Origin: Elusimicrobiales bacterium
GTDB taxonomy: Bacteria; Elusimicrobiota; Elusimicrobia; Elusimicrobiales; UBA9959
DNA: 64,000 nucleotides
NCBI GenBank assembly: GCA_049972095.1
Contig: JBMFKQ010000004.1
Span: forward strand, 5,727 to 69,726
Reading direction: 5' to 3'
In this document: positions 35,817 to 43,880 of the stretch, one piece after another
Layout of the letters: every line of letters starts with the position of its first letter
Position numbering within the stretch: the first letter of the stretch is position 1
The notes under the pieces: model-generated
What the model was told of the DNA's origin: nothing
Databases searched by the model: none
Seen by the model: the letters and a program-made list of their open reading frames with translations, nothing else
Position numbers and translations under genes: made by a program

Positions 35817-35871
35817 AAAAAAAAACCTTTCAAATCTCCAAAGGAAATAAAAATCATTTGAGAGTTTGAAA
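35817..35871 (-). terminator. Putative intrinsic terminator after the hppA operon
   Basis: Imperfect stem TTTCAAACTCTCAAA/TTTGGAGATTTGAAA followed by GG and T9 on the minus strand. Confidence 0.55.
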
Positions 35872-35880
35872 TATAGCCAC

Positions 35881-36648
35881 TCAATGTTGAGTTCTATTTA
35901 GAGTTTTTAGCCAATTAATGACGAAATACCAGATATTCCCGTAAAACTCATGAATGAAAACAGATGAGTATCTGAAATCACCAGGTAAAAAATCAAGATA
36001 TGAAAAATTGCTGCACATATATGATGAAGGATAGAGAGAAAACTTAATTCCTTTTTTATCCAAAAGATATGCTATTCTTGGCAGATGAATAGCATCGCTT
36101 ACAGCAATAATCTTTTTAAAACCTTTTTTCTTACATATCTTGCTAATCATCTCAACATTTTCTAATGTATCCTTTGATGATGTGTCTTGATGAATCCTTT
36201 CAGCATCAACCCCAATCGATTGAAGTAGTAATGAGGACTCATAGCCAAAGGATCTTTGATTTAAAACATAACCGCCACTGACTATTACATCTATATGCTT
36301 TTTTTGATAAACTCTATATGCTGCAAAAATTCTTTGTGCTGAAATAGAATCAACAGAATACGAAGCAGAAATCTTATCTAAAAAAAAAGATACCCCCCCT
36401 CCAAAAACAGCAATAACATCCCCCTCATCAGAAGATCTTTCATAAATCTTTTCTTCAATCCTGCATATCAGATACTTCCAAAGAAAATTGGACGAAAAAA
36501 GATAAATAAAAAAAGCAAAGAATGCAGAGAGACAAAAGCTATATTTGTTCTTTTTAAAAATTGATAAAACCAAAGAAAAAATTGACAAGAGGAAAAGAAA
36601 ACCACCTGGAAGAAGAAATGCTGATATAATTTTTTTGATCTCAAACAT
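35881..36648 (-). CDS. YdcF/ElyC (DUF218) family protein
   Basis: Two N-terminal TMs, AVFGGG, IVSGG, SKDTLEN, VSDAIHLPR, HEFYG. Confidence 0.85.
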   Translation of the reverse strand: MFEIKKIISAFLLPGGFLFLLSIFSLVLSIFKKNKYSFCLSAFFAFFIYLFSSNFLWKYLICRIEEKIYERSSDEGDVIAVFGGGVSFFLDKISASYSVDSISAQRIFAAYRVYQKKHIDVIVSGGYVLNQRSFGYESSLLLQSIGVDAERIHQDTSSKDTLENVEMISKICKKKGFKKIIAVSDAIHLPRIAYLLDKKGIKFSLYPSSYMCSNFSYLDFLPGDFRYSSVFIHEFYGNIWYFVINWLKTLNRTQH

Positions 36649-38131
36649 AGATTATCAAGTAGGTTACAGATAGGTATACCAAAGCTGTCAGATATGATAT
36701 ATATTTTGATGAAAACATAAGGGTTAAAAAGGCATATAGACAGAAGCATGAAACAAGGTTTGTAAAGTTGATACCAAATGTGTAAGAGCATATAACAAGA
36801 GATGCTGAGTAAATGAATGTTATAACAGAAAGGCTAAATAACGAATCTATAAAAAGGTTATTGAATCTTTTAAATATGTTATCTGAGTAAAGATCAAATA
36901 CATAGAAGAAAAAAACAGCAATCACAACAGAAAAAAAGCTGTAACTATCTGAATAACCAAAATAAAGGACAAGATAATCATATGCTATTTTAAAGCCAAG
37001 TCCTGATGAAAGAACTGCAAGGAGAAACATATTCTTAAAAGACACAACATCACACTCAATTCTCTCAAATGAAGAATTATTCTGTATAAAATAAACAAGA
37101 TAATTATAATCTCTATGTTTAGCAGTTAAGTAGAAAAAGGGAATTAAAAGCATAAGATTGAAAATTACAAAGCGCTCATAGTTCATTGATGTATTGAATA
37201 TGTAAAACATTTTGCTTAAGAAAAAAAAGAATATGATAATAAAAAATGACATAAATGCATAATATCTCTCAAATACATCTCCCTTTACAAATACGAAAAG
37301 CATGGAAAAATAAAGTATAGCTGCAGGCAGAACAAAGAATAGATTTGAATAACTATGATATGACATATAAAAAAGTATCGCAGGATAAAAAAGTGTAAGG
37401 GATAGTCCAAAAGGTATTTTAAAATAATATTTTTTGTAGTTATCTGGGAGAAAAACAGATGCAGCTTCATTAATCATAGCACAGATAAAAAAAACTGATA
37501 TTGCATCAAAAACATATCTTACATCCGATGGCATAAGATACTTTAAGCCAAATAAAGCAGTTAAAATCATTATGAGAGATATAGATGAAGAGGTTATAAA
37601 ATAAACAATCTTAGAATATCTTTTCTCAAAGGCTGAGTATGCAAGAAAGGATAAAAAAACTGCACCTAAAAAAATAACAGGATAGTCAAAATCTATTCCT
37701 TTTTTAAAATAAAGCAAAATAAGTGCTGAATATACTGCAAAGACAACAAAGAGTTTTGAAACCACAAAGATATCTCTCACCAAATACCTCTTATCAGAAA
37801 AGACAAAAGGATAGATAATCTTTAAAAGATTAAAAGAGATAAAAACATCCGCAGATAAAAAAATAAAAAAGAGCAATGAACCATATATTAGAATAAATGA
37901 GAAGTCTTTTCTGATAAAAAAAATAAAAACAGCAAAAATAAAAACAAAGATAAAAAGAGGTATAAGCCTTCTTATTAAAAACTCACCAAAAAGCTCTTTT
38001 AATGAGTAAATTGTAATCTCGTATTCTTGTGGTGCAGTGGTTTTTAAAGATGAAGATACTTTGAAATATCTAACCGCTGCATACAAACTGGCTATGGCGG
38101 CAAGAGATATGTATAAAATAAAATGCAGCAA
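36641..38131 (-). CDS. Polytopic membrane protein (~16 TM), possible non-catalytic membrane-PPase paralogue
   Basis: 496 aa, about 16 hydrophobic segments, TTG start 3 nt after the hppA stop; N-terminus resembles PPase TM1-2; no acidic PPase motifs. Confidence 0.6.
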   Translation of the reverse strand: MLHFILYISLAAIASLYAAVRYFKVSSSLKTTAPQEYEITIYSLKELFGEFLIRRLIPLFIFVFIFAVFIFFIRKDFSFILIYGSLLFFIFLSADVFISFNLLKIIYPFVFSDKRYLVRDIFVVSKLFVVFAVYSALILLYFKKGIDFDYPVIFLGAVFLSFLAYSAFEKRYSKIVYFITSSSISLIMILTALFGLKYLMPSDVRYVFDAISVFFICAMINEAASVFLPDNYKKYYFKIPFGLSLTLFYPAILFYMSYHSYSNLFFVLPAAILYFSMLFVFVKGDVFERYYAFMSFFIIIFFFFLSKMFYIFNTSMNYERFVIFNLMLLIPFFYLTAKHRDYNYLVYFIQNNSSFERIECDVVSFKNMFLLAVLSSGLGFKIAYDYLVLYFGYSDSYSFFSVVIAVFFFYVFDLYSDNIFKRFNNLFIDSLFSLSVITFIYSASLVICSYTFGINFTNLVSCFCLYAFLTLMFSSKYISYLTALVYLSVTYLIIYV

Positions 38132-38134
38132 GAT

Positions 38135-40498
38135 TTAATCCTCTTTTATTCTCATTCTATAAAAGCTTCTCCAGATAAATATAACAGAAAGTACAAAGAA
38201 GATAATGAAAAGAATAAATCTTGTTCTGTTATTAAGCTCTATTGCAAGCTCAACAGCAAGAAGTCCAAAAAGTGTTGTGAATTTGATTATTGGGTTCATA
38301 GAAACTGATGCAGTATCCTTAAATGGATCACCAACAGTATCTCCAACAACAGTTGCAGCATGAAGTTCAGTTCCTTTAGCATTCAACTCTGTCTCAACAA
38401 GCTTTTTAGCATTGTCCCATGCAGCACCAGCATTTGCCATAAAAACTGCCTGAAAAAGACCAAAGAGTGCTATTGATATAAGATAACCTATAAACAAATA
38501 ATGGTTCAGGCAAGCATAGGCAAGCGTTGCAAAGAAGACAGCAAGAAATATATTAAACATACCCCTTTGGGCATAAACAGTGCATATTTCAACCACCTTC
38601 TTTGAATCTGATACACTTGCTTTTGTAACCCCATCAAGCTTTATATTCTTCTTAATAAACTCTGTTGCTCTGTAAGCACCTGTGGTTACTGCCTGATTTG
38701 ATGCACCACTAAACCAATATATCATTGCCCCACCAACTATAAGTCCAAGGAAGAAATAAGGATTAAGTATTGAAAGTCCTTCAGTAGCACCTGCTTCTCC
38801 ATATTTTATTCTCAAAACCTGAATTATTGAAAATATCAAAGTTGTTGCTCCCACAACAGCAGTTCCTATTAAAACTGGTTTTGCAGTTGCCTTGAATGTG
38901 TTTCCGGCACCGTCATTTTCCTCAAGATATATCTTTGAGTTAAAATCCGGCTCAAAACCATAGCTCTTTTTAATATCCTGCTTTATGTTTGGTATATTCT
39001 CTATGGTTGAAAGCTCATATATTGATTGGGCATTGTCTGTGACAGGACCATAGGAATCAACAGCAATTGTTACAGGACCCATACCAAGAAAACCAAATGC
39101 AACAAGGCCAAAAGCAAAGACAGTTGGATTTACCATAATAGCATCAAGTCCGAGTCTGCTTACATAATATGCAATAGCCATAAGAAAAACTATAGCAATA
39201 CCAAGCCAGTATGATGAAAAATTTCCAGCCACAAAGCCCGAAAGTATATTAAGTGATGCGCCTCCTTCCTTTGAGGCATTCAGGACCTCCTTAACATGCT
39301 TTGACTTCGTTGATGTAAAAACCTTAACAAACTCAGGTATAATTGCACCTGCAAGAGTTCCACAGGTTATTATGGTGGCAAGCTTGTACCAATATGTGTT
39401 ATCTCCTCCAAGCTCTGGTATTATAAGACAGCTCAAGATGTATGTCATTATTATTGAGATAAAAGATGTAAGCCACACAAGCGATGTTAGTGGAAGCTCA
39501 AAATTAAGATGCCTTTCATCTTCATACCTTGATTTAAAATAAAAACCATTAATCCAGTAAGACACAATACTTGTTATTATCATTGCTATACGCATTACAA
39601 ATATCCATACAAGAAGCTGTATCTGAACTACAGGATCTTTCACTGCAAGAAGTATAAAGGTTATGAGAGCAACTCCTGTAACACCATATGTCTCAAAGCC
39701 ATCAGCAGTCGGACCAACAGAATCACCGGCATTGTCTCCGGTACAATCTGCAATAACACCCGGATTTCTTGCATCATCCTCTTTTATCTTGAATATTATC
39801 TTCATCAGATCTGAGCCAATATCAGCAATCTTAGTAAATATTCCTCCCGCTATTCTAAGCGCCGCAGCTCCAAGCGATTCTCCAATAGCAAAGCCTATAA
39901 AGCAGGGACCTGAGTATTCACCTGGAATGAAAAGAAGTATGATAAGCATTATTATTAGCTCCACGCTTATAAGAAGAGTTCCTATGCTTATGCCTGCCCT
40001 AAGAGGAATATCCATAGCAGGATATGGATATCCCTTAAGCACAGCAAAAGCTGTTCTTGAGTTTGCATAGGTATTCATTCTCATACCAAACCAGGCAACG
40101 CTATAAGAGCCCAAAATTCCTACAACACTAAATAAAAGGATTATAAAGACTTTTTCAGCTGTAAAATGCATAAGATATCCAAAATAGAAAAGGATTATAA
40201 CCGCAACAAAACACCACAAGATAAAAAGAAACCTTCCCTGAGTTAGAAGGTATGTTTTACAGGTTTCATATATCAATTCTGATACCTCAAGCATCGCTTT
40301 ATGAACTGGAAGTTTTCTAACATTTGCAAAGTGATAGAGTCCAAAAAGCATTCCTCCAAAACACACAACTATACCCCAAATAAGAAGACTATGCCCTGTG
40401 AAAGGACCAAAGTTGACTGTTGATAGATCAGGCACAATAAGATTTGCCTCACTTGCTGAAAGAGCCTGTACAAAAACAGATACAATCTTCATCATCAT
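38135..40498 (-). CDS. hppA: Membrane-bound H+-translocating pyrophosphatase, divergent K+-independent type
   Basis: GGIFTKIADIGSDL, EDDARNPGVIADCTGDNAGD, DSYGPVTDNA, GNTFKA (Lys determinant), GDTVGDPFKD. Confidence 0.95.
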   Translation of the reverse strand: MMMKIVSVFVQALSASEANLIVPDLSTVNFGPFTGHSLLIWGIVVCFGGMLFGLYHFANVRKLPVHKAMLEVSELIYETCKTYLLTQGRFLFILWCFVAVIILFYFGYLMHFTAEKVFIILLFSVVGILGSYSVAWFGMRMNTYANSRTAFAVLKGYPYPAMDIPLRAGISIGTLLISVELIIMLIILLFIPGEYSGPCFIGFAIGESLGAAALRIAGGIFTKIADIGSDLMKIIFKIKEDDARNPGVIADCTGDNAGDSVGPTADGFETYGVTGVALITFILLAVKDPVVQIQLLVWIFVMRIAMIITSIVSYWINGFYFKSRYEDERHLNFELPLTSLVWLTSFISIIMTYILSCLIIPELGGDNTYWYKLATIITCGTLAGAIIPEFVKVFTSTKSKHVKEVLNASKEGGASLNILSGFVAGNFSSYWLGIAIVFLMAIAYYVSRLGLDAIMVNPTVFAFGLVAFGFLGMGPVTIAVDSYGPVTDNAQSIYELSTIENIPNIKQDIKKSYGFEPDFNSKIYLEENDGAGNTFKATAKPVLIGTAVVGATTLIFSIIQVLRIKYGEAGATEGLSILNPYFFLGLIVGGAMIYWFSGASNQAVTTGAYRATEFIKKNIKLDGVTKASVSDSKKVVEICTVYAQRGMFNIFLAVFFATLAYACLNHYLFIGYLISIALFGLFQAVFMANAGAAWDNAKKLVETELNAKGTELHAATVVGDTVGDPFKDTASVSMNPIIKFTTLFGLLAVELAIELNNRTRFILFIIFFVLSVIFIWRSFYRMRIKED

Positions 40499-40532: not shown

Positions 40533-40561
40533 AATATACAAAAATTTCCTTCAAAAATCAA
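40533..40561 (-). promoter_or_regulatory. sigma70-type promoter of hppA
   Basis: TTGATT-17nt-TATATT on the minus strand; SD AGGAGG before ATG. Confidence 0.6.
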
Positions 40562-40648: not shown

Positions 40649-41407
40649 TTATAAAAATCTCTTTATAACATCACTTGTTATCTCATAAACAGATGATATT
40701 TTATCAATATTTGCATAAAACTCATTAGAGCTAAAATTTAAGCAAATACTCCCGTTCTTCATAAAAAGCATCTGATCAAAATAATAAGATGCTGCTTTGA
40801 GATCATGCATAACAGCTATCACTGTTAGTTTTTCATTAATAACCATTTCTTTTAGCATTGAAAGGATCTCAATCCGATGTTTTATATCAAGATGTGATGT
40901 CGGTTCATCAACAAGAATAATAGATGTTTTTTGAACAGCTGCCTGTGCTATTAATACCATCTGCCTTTCTCCGTTTGAAAGCTCATTTATTCTCCTATTG
41001 AACAGATGCTCTATTCTCATAGCTCTTGCCACATCATAAATTAAATCAATGTCCTCATCACTGTAGAATGAAAAAAAGCTATGAAAACGCCTTCTTCCCA
41101 TAAGAAGTATATCCTTGACATAAAAATCAAAATAAAAAAAAGTATCACCACAAACATATGAAACAAGTTTTGATAATTCAACCTCATTGAGAAGTTTTAG
41201 CTCAGCATAAGAGTTATCCTTTCTTATCCTGACACTCCCTAAATAGTTCTTGTATATGCCTGAGATTATCTTAAGAAAAGTTGTTTTACCACAACCATTT
41301 GGTCCACAGAGTGCATAAAACCTACCACCTTCAAAATCAAAATTTAGTCCATTTAGGACCTTAATTCCTCTAATATATTCAAACGACAATCCAGAGATTT
41401 TTATCAT
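40649..41407 (-). CDS. ABC transporter ATPase (BtuD/FecE type)
   Basis: GPNGCGKTT, LSNGERQ, LVDEPTSHLD, VMHDL. Confidence 0.92.
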   Translation of the reverse strand: MIKISGLSFEYIRGIKVLNGLNFDFEGGRFYALCGPNGCGKTTFLKIISGIYKNYLGSVRIRKDNSYAELKLLNEVELSKLVSYVCGDTFFYFDFYVKDILLMGRRRFHSFFSFYSDEDIDLIYDVARAMRIEHLFNRRINELSNGERQMVLIAQAAVQKTSIILVDEPTSHLDIKHRIEILSMLKEMVINEKLTVIAVMHDLKAASYYFDQMLFMKNGSICLNFSSNEFYANIDKISSVYEITSDVIKRFL

Positions 41408-42336
41408 TTAAAAGCCCTTTTCACAACACTAAGATAGATAAAGAAAATTGAGCCAGCTATGGATGTGAATACCCCGGGCGGAATTTCAATAGGATAGAAA
41501 AAAAGCCTCGATGTTATACTTGATATTAAAAGCATAGAAGAACCAACTATCATACTCATTAAAAGTCTCTTTTCTTCACACAAGCTTCTAAATAAAAGCC
41601 TTGTTATATGTGGGCTCATAAGCCCAACAAAACCTATTATCCCTGACAAAGAAACTGATAAGGAAGAAAGTGCAGAAGAAAAAAGGAGTGATAAAAATAC
41701 AACCCTGTTTCTGTTTATCCCAAGTGTCAGCGATTTATCCTCATGAAAGGCAATTATCTTTATATCCTTCATCATTATAAAAACAAACAGAACTGAAAAA
41801 ACACCAGCTATTAAAGAGTAAACTATACTTCTCCAATCAGAGTATGAAAAACTCCCAAAGCTTATATGAAGAAAGCTCAGCGAGTTTTCCTTTGAAAATA
41901 TAACTCCAAGAACAATAATAGAGAGTATAAATGAATTGACAGCAACACCACTCAACAGTATGTTTCCGGGAATTTTTGATGCCCTTGATATCATTATGGA
42001 TAGATATGTTGATATGAATGCAAGAGATATTACAATAAAAAAATAACCACAAGATGATGATGACACTCCAAGCAAAATAGACAATATTATACCCAACATA
42101 GCACCACTTGATGTCCCGACTATAAACGGATCTGCAAGTGGATTTCTTGTTATCATCTGAACAATATATCCTGCTGATGAGAGAAATGCGCCTGTAAAAA
42201 AAATAGATATACTTCTGGGAATTCTTAGATCAAGTATAATCTCCTTATCATAATAGGGTAGATAAAGATCAATTAAAAAAAGCAGGATAAAAAAAATAAT
42301 TAAAAAAACAATTTTTATTTTTTCACCTTTCATCAA
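41404..42336 (-). CDS. FecCD/BtuC family permease
   Basis: LRIPR, RNPLADPFIVGTSSGA, GIIGFVGLMSPH, EIPPGV. Confidence 0.92.
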   Translation of the reverse strand: MMKGEKIKIVFLIIFFILLFLIDLYLPYYDKEIILDLRIPRSISIFFTGAFLSSAGYIVQMITRNPLADPFIVGTSSGAMLGIILSILLGVSSSSCGYFFIVISLAFISTYLSIMISRASKIPGNILLSGVAVNSFILSIIVLGVIFSKENSLSFLHISFGSFSYSDWRSIVYSLIAGVFSVLFVFIMMKDIKIIAFHEDKSLTLGINRNRVVFLSLLFSSALSSLSVSLSGIIGFVGLMSPHITRLLFRSLCEEKRLLMSMIVGSSMLLISSITSRLFFYPIEIPPGVFTSIAGSIFFIYLSVVKRAFK

Positions 42337-42342
42337 TCAAAA

Positions 42343-43155
42343 TCACTGAAAAATCTTTCTTAGGTTTTGCACAATACCAACAATTCTGGGAGTAGGTCTT
42401 GATATAATCTCTCTTTCGTATTCAGAAAATTTATAAACCTTTGAATTCTTAATGGCAGAGACTTTTTGCCAGGATATAAGAGACTTAAACTCATCTGGAT
42501 TTCTTGATGAGACTATAAGAATAACATCCGGATTTCTTCTTACAATCTCTTCCCAGTTTGTTTTAAAATATCCAAGCTTCACATCATTAAATATATTAAC
42601 ACCACCAGCCTTTAATATAACATCAGATATAAATGACTCACTGCCGCATGTCCAGAAATCATAATCTAAATCAACATATACTTTTTTAAAACTCTTTGGC
42701 TTCAATCCATCTTTGAGTTTTTTTTTCATAGTATTTATTATCTCTAACGCTCTGTCATTTTTGTTGATATATCTTGCTATCGTTTCTATTGTGATATATA
42801 TATCCTCCAGCTTTTTCTCCTGTGGTATAACAACTATCTTTATATTTCTTTTCAAAGCAAGTTTTTTTATAACATCATTTTTCCAATCACCCATAAATAT
42901 TATATCTGGCTTGAGTCTATATATCATCTCCTTATCTGGATTTAGATAATCCCCAACCTTTGTTATCATTTGTGCCTGGGGCGGATAATTGCAAAAATTT
43001 GTAACACCAACAAGATTATTTCCTCCCCCAAGTTCAAATATTATCTCGGTATATGATGGAAGTAGTGAAATAACCCTTTTGTGTGTTAAAGACTGCGGAA
43101 AAACCCAGCATGATAAAAAGAAAAGATGACTAAATAAAACTATAAAAGATCTCAT
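42343..43155 (-). CDS. BtuF-like metal-chelate/cobalamin-binding protein
   Basis: RVISLLPSYTEIIFELG, VGVTNFCNYP, AGGVNIF, WEEIVRRNPDVI, RPTPRI; signal peptide. Confidence 0.88.
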   Translation of the reverse strand: MRSFIVLFSHLFFLSCWVFPQSLTHKRVISLLPSYTEIIFELGGGNNLVGVTNFCNYPPQAQMITKVGDYLNPDKEMIYRLKPDIIFMGDWKNDVIKKLALKRNIKIVVIPQEKKLEDIYITIETIARYINKNDRALEIINTMKKKLKDGLKPKSFKKVYVDLDYDFWTCGSESFISDVILKAGGVNIFNDVKLGYFKTNWEEIVRRNPDVILIVSSRNPDEFKSLISWQKVSAIKNSKVYKFSEYEREIISRPTPRIVGIVQNLRKIFQ

Positions 43156-43880
43156 AGTCTCAATGCTATTTCATAGATATCAGAATAGCATTTTGTGTTT
43201 TTTATCTTCTCTATATCTCCAATGGCAGCATCAATACTACTATCATACCTTATTTTCATATCAGCCTTATCCTTAACCATATTCTCAATCTCAATTATCT
43301 CATATCCTTTTTCTTTGTAAATCACTATCATCCTGTTATAGACCTCAAGAGAAAGCGGTGAAGGAGTTCTTACTGCAATTACTTTAAACCTCTTTATTAG
43401 ATTAATAACATCAAAAGCAACATCATAAAAACCAGCCGGCATGTCAACAATTAGATAATCAAGCCTTCCCCATCTTGTAATAGTAAGAATCTCTTTTATG
43501 GCATCAGATATTGAACCTCCTCTTAATGCAACTGCTTTTTGCAAGATTTTGGAGTTAGGATGAATCTCGTTATGATAAAGAGAGTTTGAGAAGAATTGAA
43601 AACTCATAAAGGAAATACCATAAACCACAGGCGCAATTATTCCATTTTCCTCATAAGGATAGATGTCATAAACCCCAAGAATTCTATGACAGCTAAAAGA
43701 TGTTATATCAAGGTCAAGAAGCCCAACCTTATAACCTCTATCTGAAAGTGCAATGGATAAAAAAGTTGCTACAATACTCTTCCCAATCCCTCCCTTAAAT
43801 CCACTAACAAGGTAGATTTTCCTAATATCTTTAAGGTTATCATCTATTAAAGCAATTCTTGGATCTATATTCTTAACCAT
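43152..43880 (-). CDS. hypB: Mrp/MinD-family ATPase, ATPase-type HypB
   Basis: IDPR, KGGIGKS, VGLLDLD, LRGGSISDAIKEILTITRWGRLDYLIVDMP, TPSPLS; no C-terminal CxxC; directly after hypA. Confidence 0.8.
   Translation of the reverse strand: MVKNIDPRIALIDDNLKDIRKIYLVSGFKGGIGKSIVATFLSIALSDRGYKVGLLDLDITSFSCHRILGVYDIYPYEENGIIAPVVYGISFMSFQFFSNSLYHNEIHPNSKILQKAVALRGGSISDAIKEILTITRWGRLDYLIVDMPAGFYDVAFDVINLIKRFKVIAVRTPSPLSLEVYNRMIVIYKEKGYEIIEIENMVKDKADMKIRYDSSIDAAIGDIEKIKNTKCYSDIYEIALRL

Follow-up and report, generated by a model that had tools for sequence, protein, structure and literature searches.

We analysed a 64,000-nt stretch of DNA from an Elusimicrobiales bacterium (contig JBMFKQ010000004.1; the window) and focused on an open reading frame (ORF) of 496 amino acids (aa; 36641–38131, minus strand) that directly follows hppA, the gene of a working membrane pyrophosphatase (mPPase). 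This ORF is probably a selected gene for a minimal, non-catalytic protein with the mPPase fold, the most reduced form in a series of dead paralogues. The gene order on the minus strand is hppA, the 496-aa ORF, a DUF218 gene, sucC, sucD and a corA-like gene. An earlier note on this DNA had read the ORF as a catalytically dead paralogue that could pair with HppA; the interval that it covered (35881–40498) includes a third gene that it omitted, the DUF218 gene (35881–36648).

The 496-aa ORF is a genuine gene

The ORF starts with TTG (38131–38129), 3 nt past the TAA stop codon of hppA (38137–38135), as the earlier note had stated, and a GAGGA motif (38143–38139) lies 7 nt upstream of the TTG in this junction (38129–38143, minus strand). 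The N-termini of the homologues align from residue 1 of the 496-aa protein. About 30 random stop codons are expected in the ORF from its base composition, and none of 20000 shuffles stayed open; the ORF, described earlier as uninterrupted, is therefore not open by chance. The other five frames over the same DNA contain 29–50 stops. The frame is a genuine gene.

The DNA of the ORF has a GC content of 0.28 and a T content of 0.46, and the lowest GC of the region lies over it (0.27–0.28 at window positions 36000–38000 vs 0.36–0.39 in hppA). Over the ORF the GC skew turns positive (+0.16), accompanied by a strong AT skew (+0.29 to +0.31); the shift arises because the coding strand is T-rich and is not a replication feature. 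The protein consists of 16% Phe and contains no Trp, and its Asp and Glu residues number 27 in total vs 58 in HppA.

The predicted fold is that of membrane pyrophosphatases

The structure of the 496-aa protein was predicted by AlphaFold2 using an alignment (A2) of 12 family members, which are 461–497 aa long and 22–66% identical to the window protein. The model had a predicted local distance difference test score (pLDDT) of 84.4 and a predicted template modelling score (pTM) of 0.86 and contained 16 long helices, in agreement with the roughly 16 hydrophobic segments counted in the earlier note; the five models ranged from 73 to 84 in pLDDT. Prediction from the single sequence was poor (pLDDT 45).

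The model was then compared with 350,542 PDB chains by Foldseek. Among the matches listed to rank 36, all were mPPases (from T. maritima, V. radiata and P. aerophilum), with E values of 2e-4 to 4e-2, a probability of 1.00 and query template modelling (TM) scores of 0.48–0.62, and they spanned the whole target. The first other fold stood at rank 37 (E 0.23, TM 0.12), and the best non-mPPase matches, including AglB 3waj and 7e9s, reached E ≥0.23 and TM 0.09–0.13. As a control, the single-sequence model, which had the same helices in another packing, gave no mPPase among 28 matches (best E 3.4, TM ≤0.17). For MFS proteins, MOP flippases, Wzy-like polymerases and GT-C proteins, there was neither a Pfam match (E up to 1) nor a Foldseek fold match; MFS, MOP flippase and polymerase folds were those that the earlier note had named beforehand as the ones to check for. 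These results point, at the level of prediction, to the sixteen-helix, two-ring fold of mPPases. A hand count of Lys and Arg residues over the loops agrees with the N-out/C-out orientation of mPPases. A complex prediction for two copies of the 496-aa protein with A2 scored 0.28, with the mark at 0.42; run without controls, it speaks neither for nor against a dimer.

The hydrolytic centre is absent

In genuine mPPases the cytoplasmic hydrolytic centre consists of Asp/Lys motifs on extended helices 5, 6, 11, 12, 15 and 16, and loops 5-6 and 15-16 carry a large part of it. In the 496-aa protein both loops are predicted to be 3 residues long, so the Asp/Lys-rich catalytic loops are absent, as the earlier note had noticed; helices 5, 15 and 16 of the model are 17–19 residues long. 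Among the longest predicted loops are 1-2 (15 aa), 7-8 (14 aa) and 11-12 (11 aa), the first and last of which had been picked out earlier as long. The catalytic motifs of HppA were sought in the 496-aa sequence, and none was present. Because the hydrolytic-centre motifs are gone, neither hydrolysis of pyrophosphate (PPi) nor pumping is expected; judged from sequence and model, the protein would be unable to bind or hydrolyse PPi and hence to pump alone.

The A2 alignment contains 26 invariant columns and 13 more that are nearly invariant; polar residues inside helices or at their ends account for many of these. Helix 6 carries the invariant residues S182 and S185 and helix 16 invariant Tyr residues, and no Asp/Lys pair was seen, as judged from the family alignment. 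Mean pairwise identity is 0.41–0.50 in helices 13–16 (0.41 in helix 13 and 0.45 in helix 15) vs 0.32 overall, and the conservation of the periplasmic loop 12-13 is 0.61; helix 10 (0.25) is among the least conserved helices, together with helices 1, 2, 7 and 9. Invariant polar residues stand at predicted periplasmic helix ends and in loop 12-13 (D149-Y150, Y390/G392/Y393/D395, N458 and the C-terminal Y495-V496). According to the available part of a review, the mPPase dimer interface is formed by helices 10, 13 and 15, the two subunits communicate, and loop 12-13 sits by the exit channel (PMC6882861).

Long dead paralogues occupy the same slot in sister genera

In the sister genera g3, g5 and g9, the slot between hppA and DUF218 holds proteins of 616–709 aa. 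Seven such genes were delimited (L038 4366–6495, L046 4727–6583, L048 610–2607, L050 1208–3253, L051 1172–3181, L052 1264–3285 and L053 1229–3079), and their profile matched 7 of the 80 genomes of the host taxonomic family, namely the single g5 genome, all three g3 genomes and 3 of 7 g9 genomes. The long paralogues match PF03030 (E 6e-85, 2e-60 and 3e-36), and their best NCBIfam model is NF001953, with 412.8, 249.8, 181.3 and 99.6 bits; intact 696-aa NF001953 proteins from other families of the phylum score 1051–1063 bits (cut-off 783). Nine bona fide mPPases share 138 invariant columns, 38 of which are D/E/K/R/N, and the long paralogues retain 5–11 of these 38 positions. Five of the seven have the gate residue D6.50 and five have K16.50, which are D266 and K739 of HppA as mapped through the alignment to 8b37 and a table in the available part of the mPPase review (PMC6882861); this pattern would fit retention of the gate for the sake of structure or conductance. 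Of the hydrolytic-centre and coupling residues, by contrast, almost all are gone; for instance, D481, which is aligned with D11.50, is kept in one of the seven and K12.50 in none.

Within a genus the long paralogues are 41–80% identical. A scan of contigs with their alignment returned 79 loci, of which one was a paralogue (L054) and the rest were ordinary mPPases, mostly from Acidobacteriaceae, at 25–28% identity. The long ORFs are, by their profile scores, decayed NF001953-type mPPases that are still recognisable. From the profile matches and the lost columns it follows that the host family carries a dead NF001953-type mPPase between a live NF001950-type one and DUF218; this paralogue is at different stages of decay across genera and has been lost in many.

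Descent of the 496-aa protein from an NF001953-type mPPase is not detectable by sequence (no NCBIfam match; hhalign probability 0.04%). From fold and position, we infer that the long paralogue would be the ancestor of the 496-aa form. The likely ancestor is thus an NF001953-type mPPase, of another subfamily than the adjacent NF001950-type hppA, which argues that the 496-aa gene is not a recent tandem copy of hppA. The core reading of the earlier note, a stripped and dead protein with the mPPase fold, is supported at the level of the predicted structure.

The short ORF is linked to hppA and DUF218

The short family was present in 4 of the 80 genomes of the host family, namely the window genome and all three genomes of genus g10; a phylum sample of 401 genomes yielded the same four and one spurious 26-residue match. 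By comparison, hppA occurs in 69 of the 80 genomes and in 13 of 13 genera, at 73–87% identity. Five short-ORF lineages had a readable context (the window, G019, G010/L146, G041 and L147, of which L146 and L147 are metagenome contigs). All five have hppA upstream and DUF218 downstream on the same strand, in the order hppA, short ORF, DUF218, sucC, sucD, corA, so that the linkage to hppA, which the earlier note had proposed to check, is conserved. The short ORF and DUF218 overlap by 8–14 nt in every lineage read. The short-ORF clade was monophyletic on the HppA tree (SH-aLRT 100 in a quick tree search); this tree includes four mis-extracted opposite-frame rows from high-GC loci (L021, L027, L029 and L030), flagged as long branches.

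The state after hppA was read in 30 loci of the family. The next gene was the short ORF in 4, a hydrophobic ORF of 616–709 aa in 6, a DUF218-like gene with none between in 12 and something else in 4; three loci were unreadable (G074, G048 and G046, all among the mis-extracted tree rows), and in one the contig ended. DUF218 thus stands after hppA or after the middle gene in 22 of the 30 loci, where it was judged by N-terminal likeness, with only part of the proteins run through Pfam.

Selection and rate of change

The short-ORF frames remain open at 461–497 aa across lineages that are only 22–45% identical, and from this openness across deep divergence, selection appears to keep the 496-aa ORF open. 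In 6 of 6 pairs of the family, the proportion of nonsynonymous differences (pN, 0.38–0.53) lay below that of synonymous differences (pS, 0.65–0.73). For the long paralogues, the ratio of nonsynonymous to synonymous rates (dN/dS) was 0.21–0.35, including one unsaturated pair with a dS of 0.34. Of the synteny and dN/dS checks that the earlier note had called for, the first gave conserved linkage and the second pN below pS, with ratios for the 496-aa pairs that are rough owing to saturated dS. On HppA, 23 positions are fixed only in the short-ORF clade, and of these none lies in helix 10, none in helix 13 and one in helix 15.

Neighbouring genes

The product of hppA (38135–40498, minus strand) has 787 aa and 86 kDa, matches PF03030 at E 1.6e-182 and scores 1379.5 bits on NF001950 (cut-off 826), as expected of a working mPPase of that type. 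Aligned to the P. aerophilum enzyme (PDB 8b37), HppA shows the full set of catalytic motifs; it is the sole PF03030 match in the host genome (96.5% complete) and is 85–87% identical in the sister genus. Residues 1–16 of HppA resemble a signal peptide, and an extra hydrophobic segment follows helix 16 at the C-terminus (residues 755–782). Position 12.46 is Lys, as in the K+-insensitive P. aerophilum enzyme, whose structure 8b37 is also the best PDB match of HppA (E 8e-61), and position 6.53 is Glu. Upstream of hppA on the same strand lie the genes of an ABC import system (40649–43880; PF00005 ATPase, FecCD permease and Peripla_BP_2 binding protein), preceded by a gene for a ParA/NUBPL-type P-loop ATPase.

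The DUF218 gene (35881–36648, minus strand) encodes 255 aa and shares its first 8 nt with the end of the 496-aa ORF. The protein matches PF02698 over profile positions 1–133 of 133 (E 1.5e-17; 64.2 bits, gathering threshold 27.6) and scores 58.8 bits on the ElyC model NF007794, below the cut-off of 205; by hydropathy, two N-terminal hydrophobic segments precede the domain. On these profile scores, it is a member of the DUF218 family and not an ElyC orthologue.

Two flanking elements that the earlier note took as the boundaries of a transcription unit did not hold up. The promoter-like hexamer pair upstream of hppA (40533–40561, minus strand) matches at 9 of 12 positions, but 20 such sites were found vs 23.1 expected in shuffles, which is the chance level. 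The terminator-like hairpin 3' of the DUF218 gene (35817–35871, minus strand) was not called by the scan; it consists of a weak 5-bp stem before a T9 run, with a fold z-score of −0.59 vs shuffles.

Across the host family, hppA and DUF218 are same-strand neighbours directly in 12 of the 30 loci and with a middle gene in 10 more; loci with this neighbourhood are the window (35881–40498) and L012, L015, L017, L019, L020, L023, L028, L032, L033, L035 and L036. A pyrophosphate pump and a C55-pyrophosphate (C55-PP)-glycan hydrolase family travel together in these loci. A search with the window DUF218 protein recovered an orthologue in all 6 of the other family members sampled and in only 3 of 144 genomes outside the family. 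Some genomes of genus g4 (L041/G064; G004:C26:6021–7579) have 1.5–1.9 kb between hppA and DUF218, with non-hydrophobic ORFs, for example one of 214 aa, in the gap. In a g13 genome, the gene after hppA is not DUF218 but encodes an oligopeptide transporter of the OPT type (PF03169, E 1.7e-42; L042 40–1995). In many family genomes hppA lies 2.1–3.8 kb from a contig end, which hints that a repeat, perhaps an rRNA operon, lies at a constant distance to one side of hppA and breaks the assemblies.

Relatives of the 496-aa protein and evidence that weighs against the proposed origin

An exhaustive HMMER search over 1.84 billion representatives found 9 relatives at E ≤0.001, eight of 461–497 aa and one a 92-aa fragment. 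A word-indexed protein search returned only 4 relatives, whether queried with the single sequence or the profile, a cluster look-up yielded no names, and a pattern scan of genome contigs with a 4-sequence alignment matched 72 stretches, none of which was a relative. The 496-aa protein matched no Pfam or NCBIfam family at E values up to 1, and hmmsearch with the 12-sequence profile gave no match in PDB at E up to 10. In the ESM Atlas, the best feature score was 0.84, to unnamed clusters, and the structural TM score was at most 0.36, from a poor Atlas model. The earlier note had seen by eye a resemblance to HppA in the N-terminus and in FLGAVFLSFLA at the place of helix 5; this resemblance could not be recovered. 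BLASTP of the 496-aa protein against HppA gave a best E of 1.9, which is not significant, the family profile reached hhalign probabilities of only 0.04–0.12% against HppA and the seven long paralogues (0.12% for HppA; 0.04% for the long-paralogue profile), also with HppA and the paralogues combined, and no segment reached P<0.47 in a segment-by-segment comparison.

Several points weigh against the origin and selection proposed here. No sequence method ties the 496-aa protein to any mPPase or long paralogue, and since sequence methods give nothing, its homology is argued from one structure prediction together with gene position. Structures of mPPases were part of the AlphaFold2 training data, and the alignment supplied had only 12 rows, so that a memorised fold is possible; the model of this sequence in the ESM Atlas was poor (pTM 0.29) and had no informative match. 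The gap in base composition between the short ORF and the long paralogues (GC 0.28 vs 0.47–0.64) may hide a signal. The 496-aa protein is only 23–28% identical to its g10 counterparts, the fastest-evolving product of the cluster (DUF218 37–40%, SucC 77–78%, HppA 85–86%), and from this fast evolution any function that it has is dispensable or loosely constrained. Losses of the middle gene have recurred, also inside genus g9, and dN/dS for the 496-aa pairs (0.22–0.44) is rough because dS is saturated. Against an obligate pairing with HppA in particular, HppA is 73–87% identical also in genomes that lack the middle gene.

Proposed role and alternative explanations

We propose that an NF001953-type mPPase gene beside hppA would have lost its hydrolytic centre and kept its 16 helices. 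The resulting protein may be made jointly with HppA, through the Shine-Dalgarno-like GAGGA and the start 3 nt past the stop codon, and jointly with the DUF218 protein, through the overlapping genes, and it would serve as a non-enzymatic membrane partner that acts via protein contacts. A role in protein contacts is favoured because conservation peaks in helices 13–16 and loop 12-13, the side on which mPPases have their dimer interface and exit channel. Tentatively, the protein could form a self-dimer of the pump core. The heterodimer with HppA put forward in the earlier note, in which the dead protein would join HppA through the helix 10/13/15 interface as a regulatory or assembly subunit, ranks below a self-dimer or a different partner role in probability. 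The close spacing and the GAGGA hint at joint translation, the linkage to hppA held in all five lineages read, the best-conserved block of the family includes two of the three interface helices, which in the mPPases covered by the available review text (PMC6882861) join subunits that communicate, and other enzyme families have dead paralogues that activate their live counterpart, from the parts available of two reports (PMC5201418, PMC3663545). Nevertheless, we consider the heterodimer unlikely: its partners would come from the NF001953 and NF001950 subfamilies, so that heteromerisation is not what duplication would yield by default, HppA is just as well conserved where the middle gene is missing, its clade-specific positions practically avoid the interface helices, and the 496-aa family shows little conservation in helix 10. 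The remaining probability lies with a protein that has no function of its own, or with a wrong fold.

A relic could persist with an open frame if truncated polytopic proteins are harmful or if its translation feeds the start of DUF218, in keeping with the repeated losses across the family and inside g9, the fastest rate and lowest GC of the cluster and the region, and the DUF218 overlap in every lineage read. We hold this to be quite improbable, since frames of similar length stay open at such low identity, many invariant columns are polar, pN is below pS in all pairs, and the losses fall exactly on the cytoplasmic catalytic extensions, with 16 of 16 helices retained. There is at best a slim chance that the 496-aa protein serves the downstream DUF218/Upr-like periplasmic enzyme by anchoring it, positioning it or handling a lipid-pyrophosphate product. 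The stop and start overlap in all lineages read and the invariant polar residues cluster at the predicted periplasmic side, and the available part of a preprint makes DUF218 proteins periplasmic hydrolases of C55-PP-linked glycans (10.64898/2026.10.14.759067); the periplasmic assignment, however, comes from a predicted model and the positive-inside rule, and DUF218 does not need the 496-aa protein, because 12 of the 30 loci have DUF218 directly after hppA.

Orphan status, Phe/Tyr richness and low GC recall envelope polymerases. The slot next to the DUF218 envelope gene might have been taken by a fast-evolving polytopic protein without kinship to mPPases (for instance a Wzy-like polymerase, GT-C enzyme or transporter), with the AlphaFold2 fold as an artefact of a shallow 12-row alignment, and the lack of sequence homology to mPPases by any method would fit. 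This explanation is very unlikely given that no such family was matched in Pfam at E up to 1, that the best non-mPPase structures, among them the oligosaccharyltransferase AglB, reached only negligible TM scores, that all five AlphaFold2 models were confident, and that the identical slot holds decayed PF03030 genes in three sister genera. As a long shot, the stripped mPPase core could now bind, position or move the C55-PP or C55-P released periplasmically by the Upr-like hydrolase, an idea drawn from the overlapping genes, the polar invariants on the periplasmic side and the DUF218 function in the preprint. If it were true, the hppA-X-DUF218 cluster would be a lipid-carrier recycling module.

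Significance and comparison with known systems

Searches of the available literature for a dead, inactive or pseudoenzyme mPPase found no report, the available part of the mPPase review mentions no non-catalytic relative (PMC6882861), and a search linking DUF218 with pyrophosphatase returned nothing relevant. The 496-aa protein is most likely a kind of mPPase relative of which no description was found in that literature. Our favoured view, that the ORF encodes a stripped mPPase core under selection, would have several consequences. The series from about 700 aa through 616–709 aa to 461–497 aa, in which the hydrolytic centre is lost stepwise and 16 helices are kept, would reveal the selection that acts on the membrane core by itself, and the 496-aa protein would offer a minimal core with which to test how mPPases gate ions, couple their subunits and fold. 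It would also illustrate how a known family can extend to an orphan hypothetical membrane protein that is no longer recognisable as a member, here with 9 representatives among 1.84 billion. The conserved hppA-DUF218 neighbourhood is moreover flagged just as DUF218 gains a biochemical role in the preprint, as far as its available part goes (10.64898/2026.10.14.759067).

Among known systems, mPPases (PF03030; 4AV3, 4A01 and 8B37) are the closest. The 496-aa protein resembles them in its predicted 16-helix fold, in its inferred N-out/C-out topology and in the position of its gene directly after a working hppA. It differs in mass (58.5 kDa vs 70–81 kDa), in matching neither PF03030 nor any NCBIfam model, those of PRK00733 included, and in having no hydrolytic-centre motifs; mPPases have 15–17 helices and are reported only as homodimers in the available text of the review (PMC6882861). 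The long paralogues of g3, g5 and g9 share with it the slot, fast evolution, purifying selection and a hydrolytic centre that is mostly gone, whereas they are recognisable by PF03030, are 120–210 aa longer and are joined to it by no sequence signal. The downstream protein is like DUF218/ElyC-SanA (Upr-like) proteins in its PF02698 score above the cut-off and its two N-terminal hydrophobic segments, and unlike ElyC in its score on the equivalog model. As a conceptual model, the locus recalls the prozymes of trypanosomatids, in which a dead paralogue pairs with and regulates the live enzyme, as described for AdoMetDC and deoxyhypusine synthase in the available parts of two reports (PMC5201418, PMC3663545). 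Prozymes are soluble and form demonstrated hetero-oligomers, whereas the genes described here belong to different mPPase subfamilies and are known from sequence and model.

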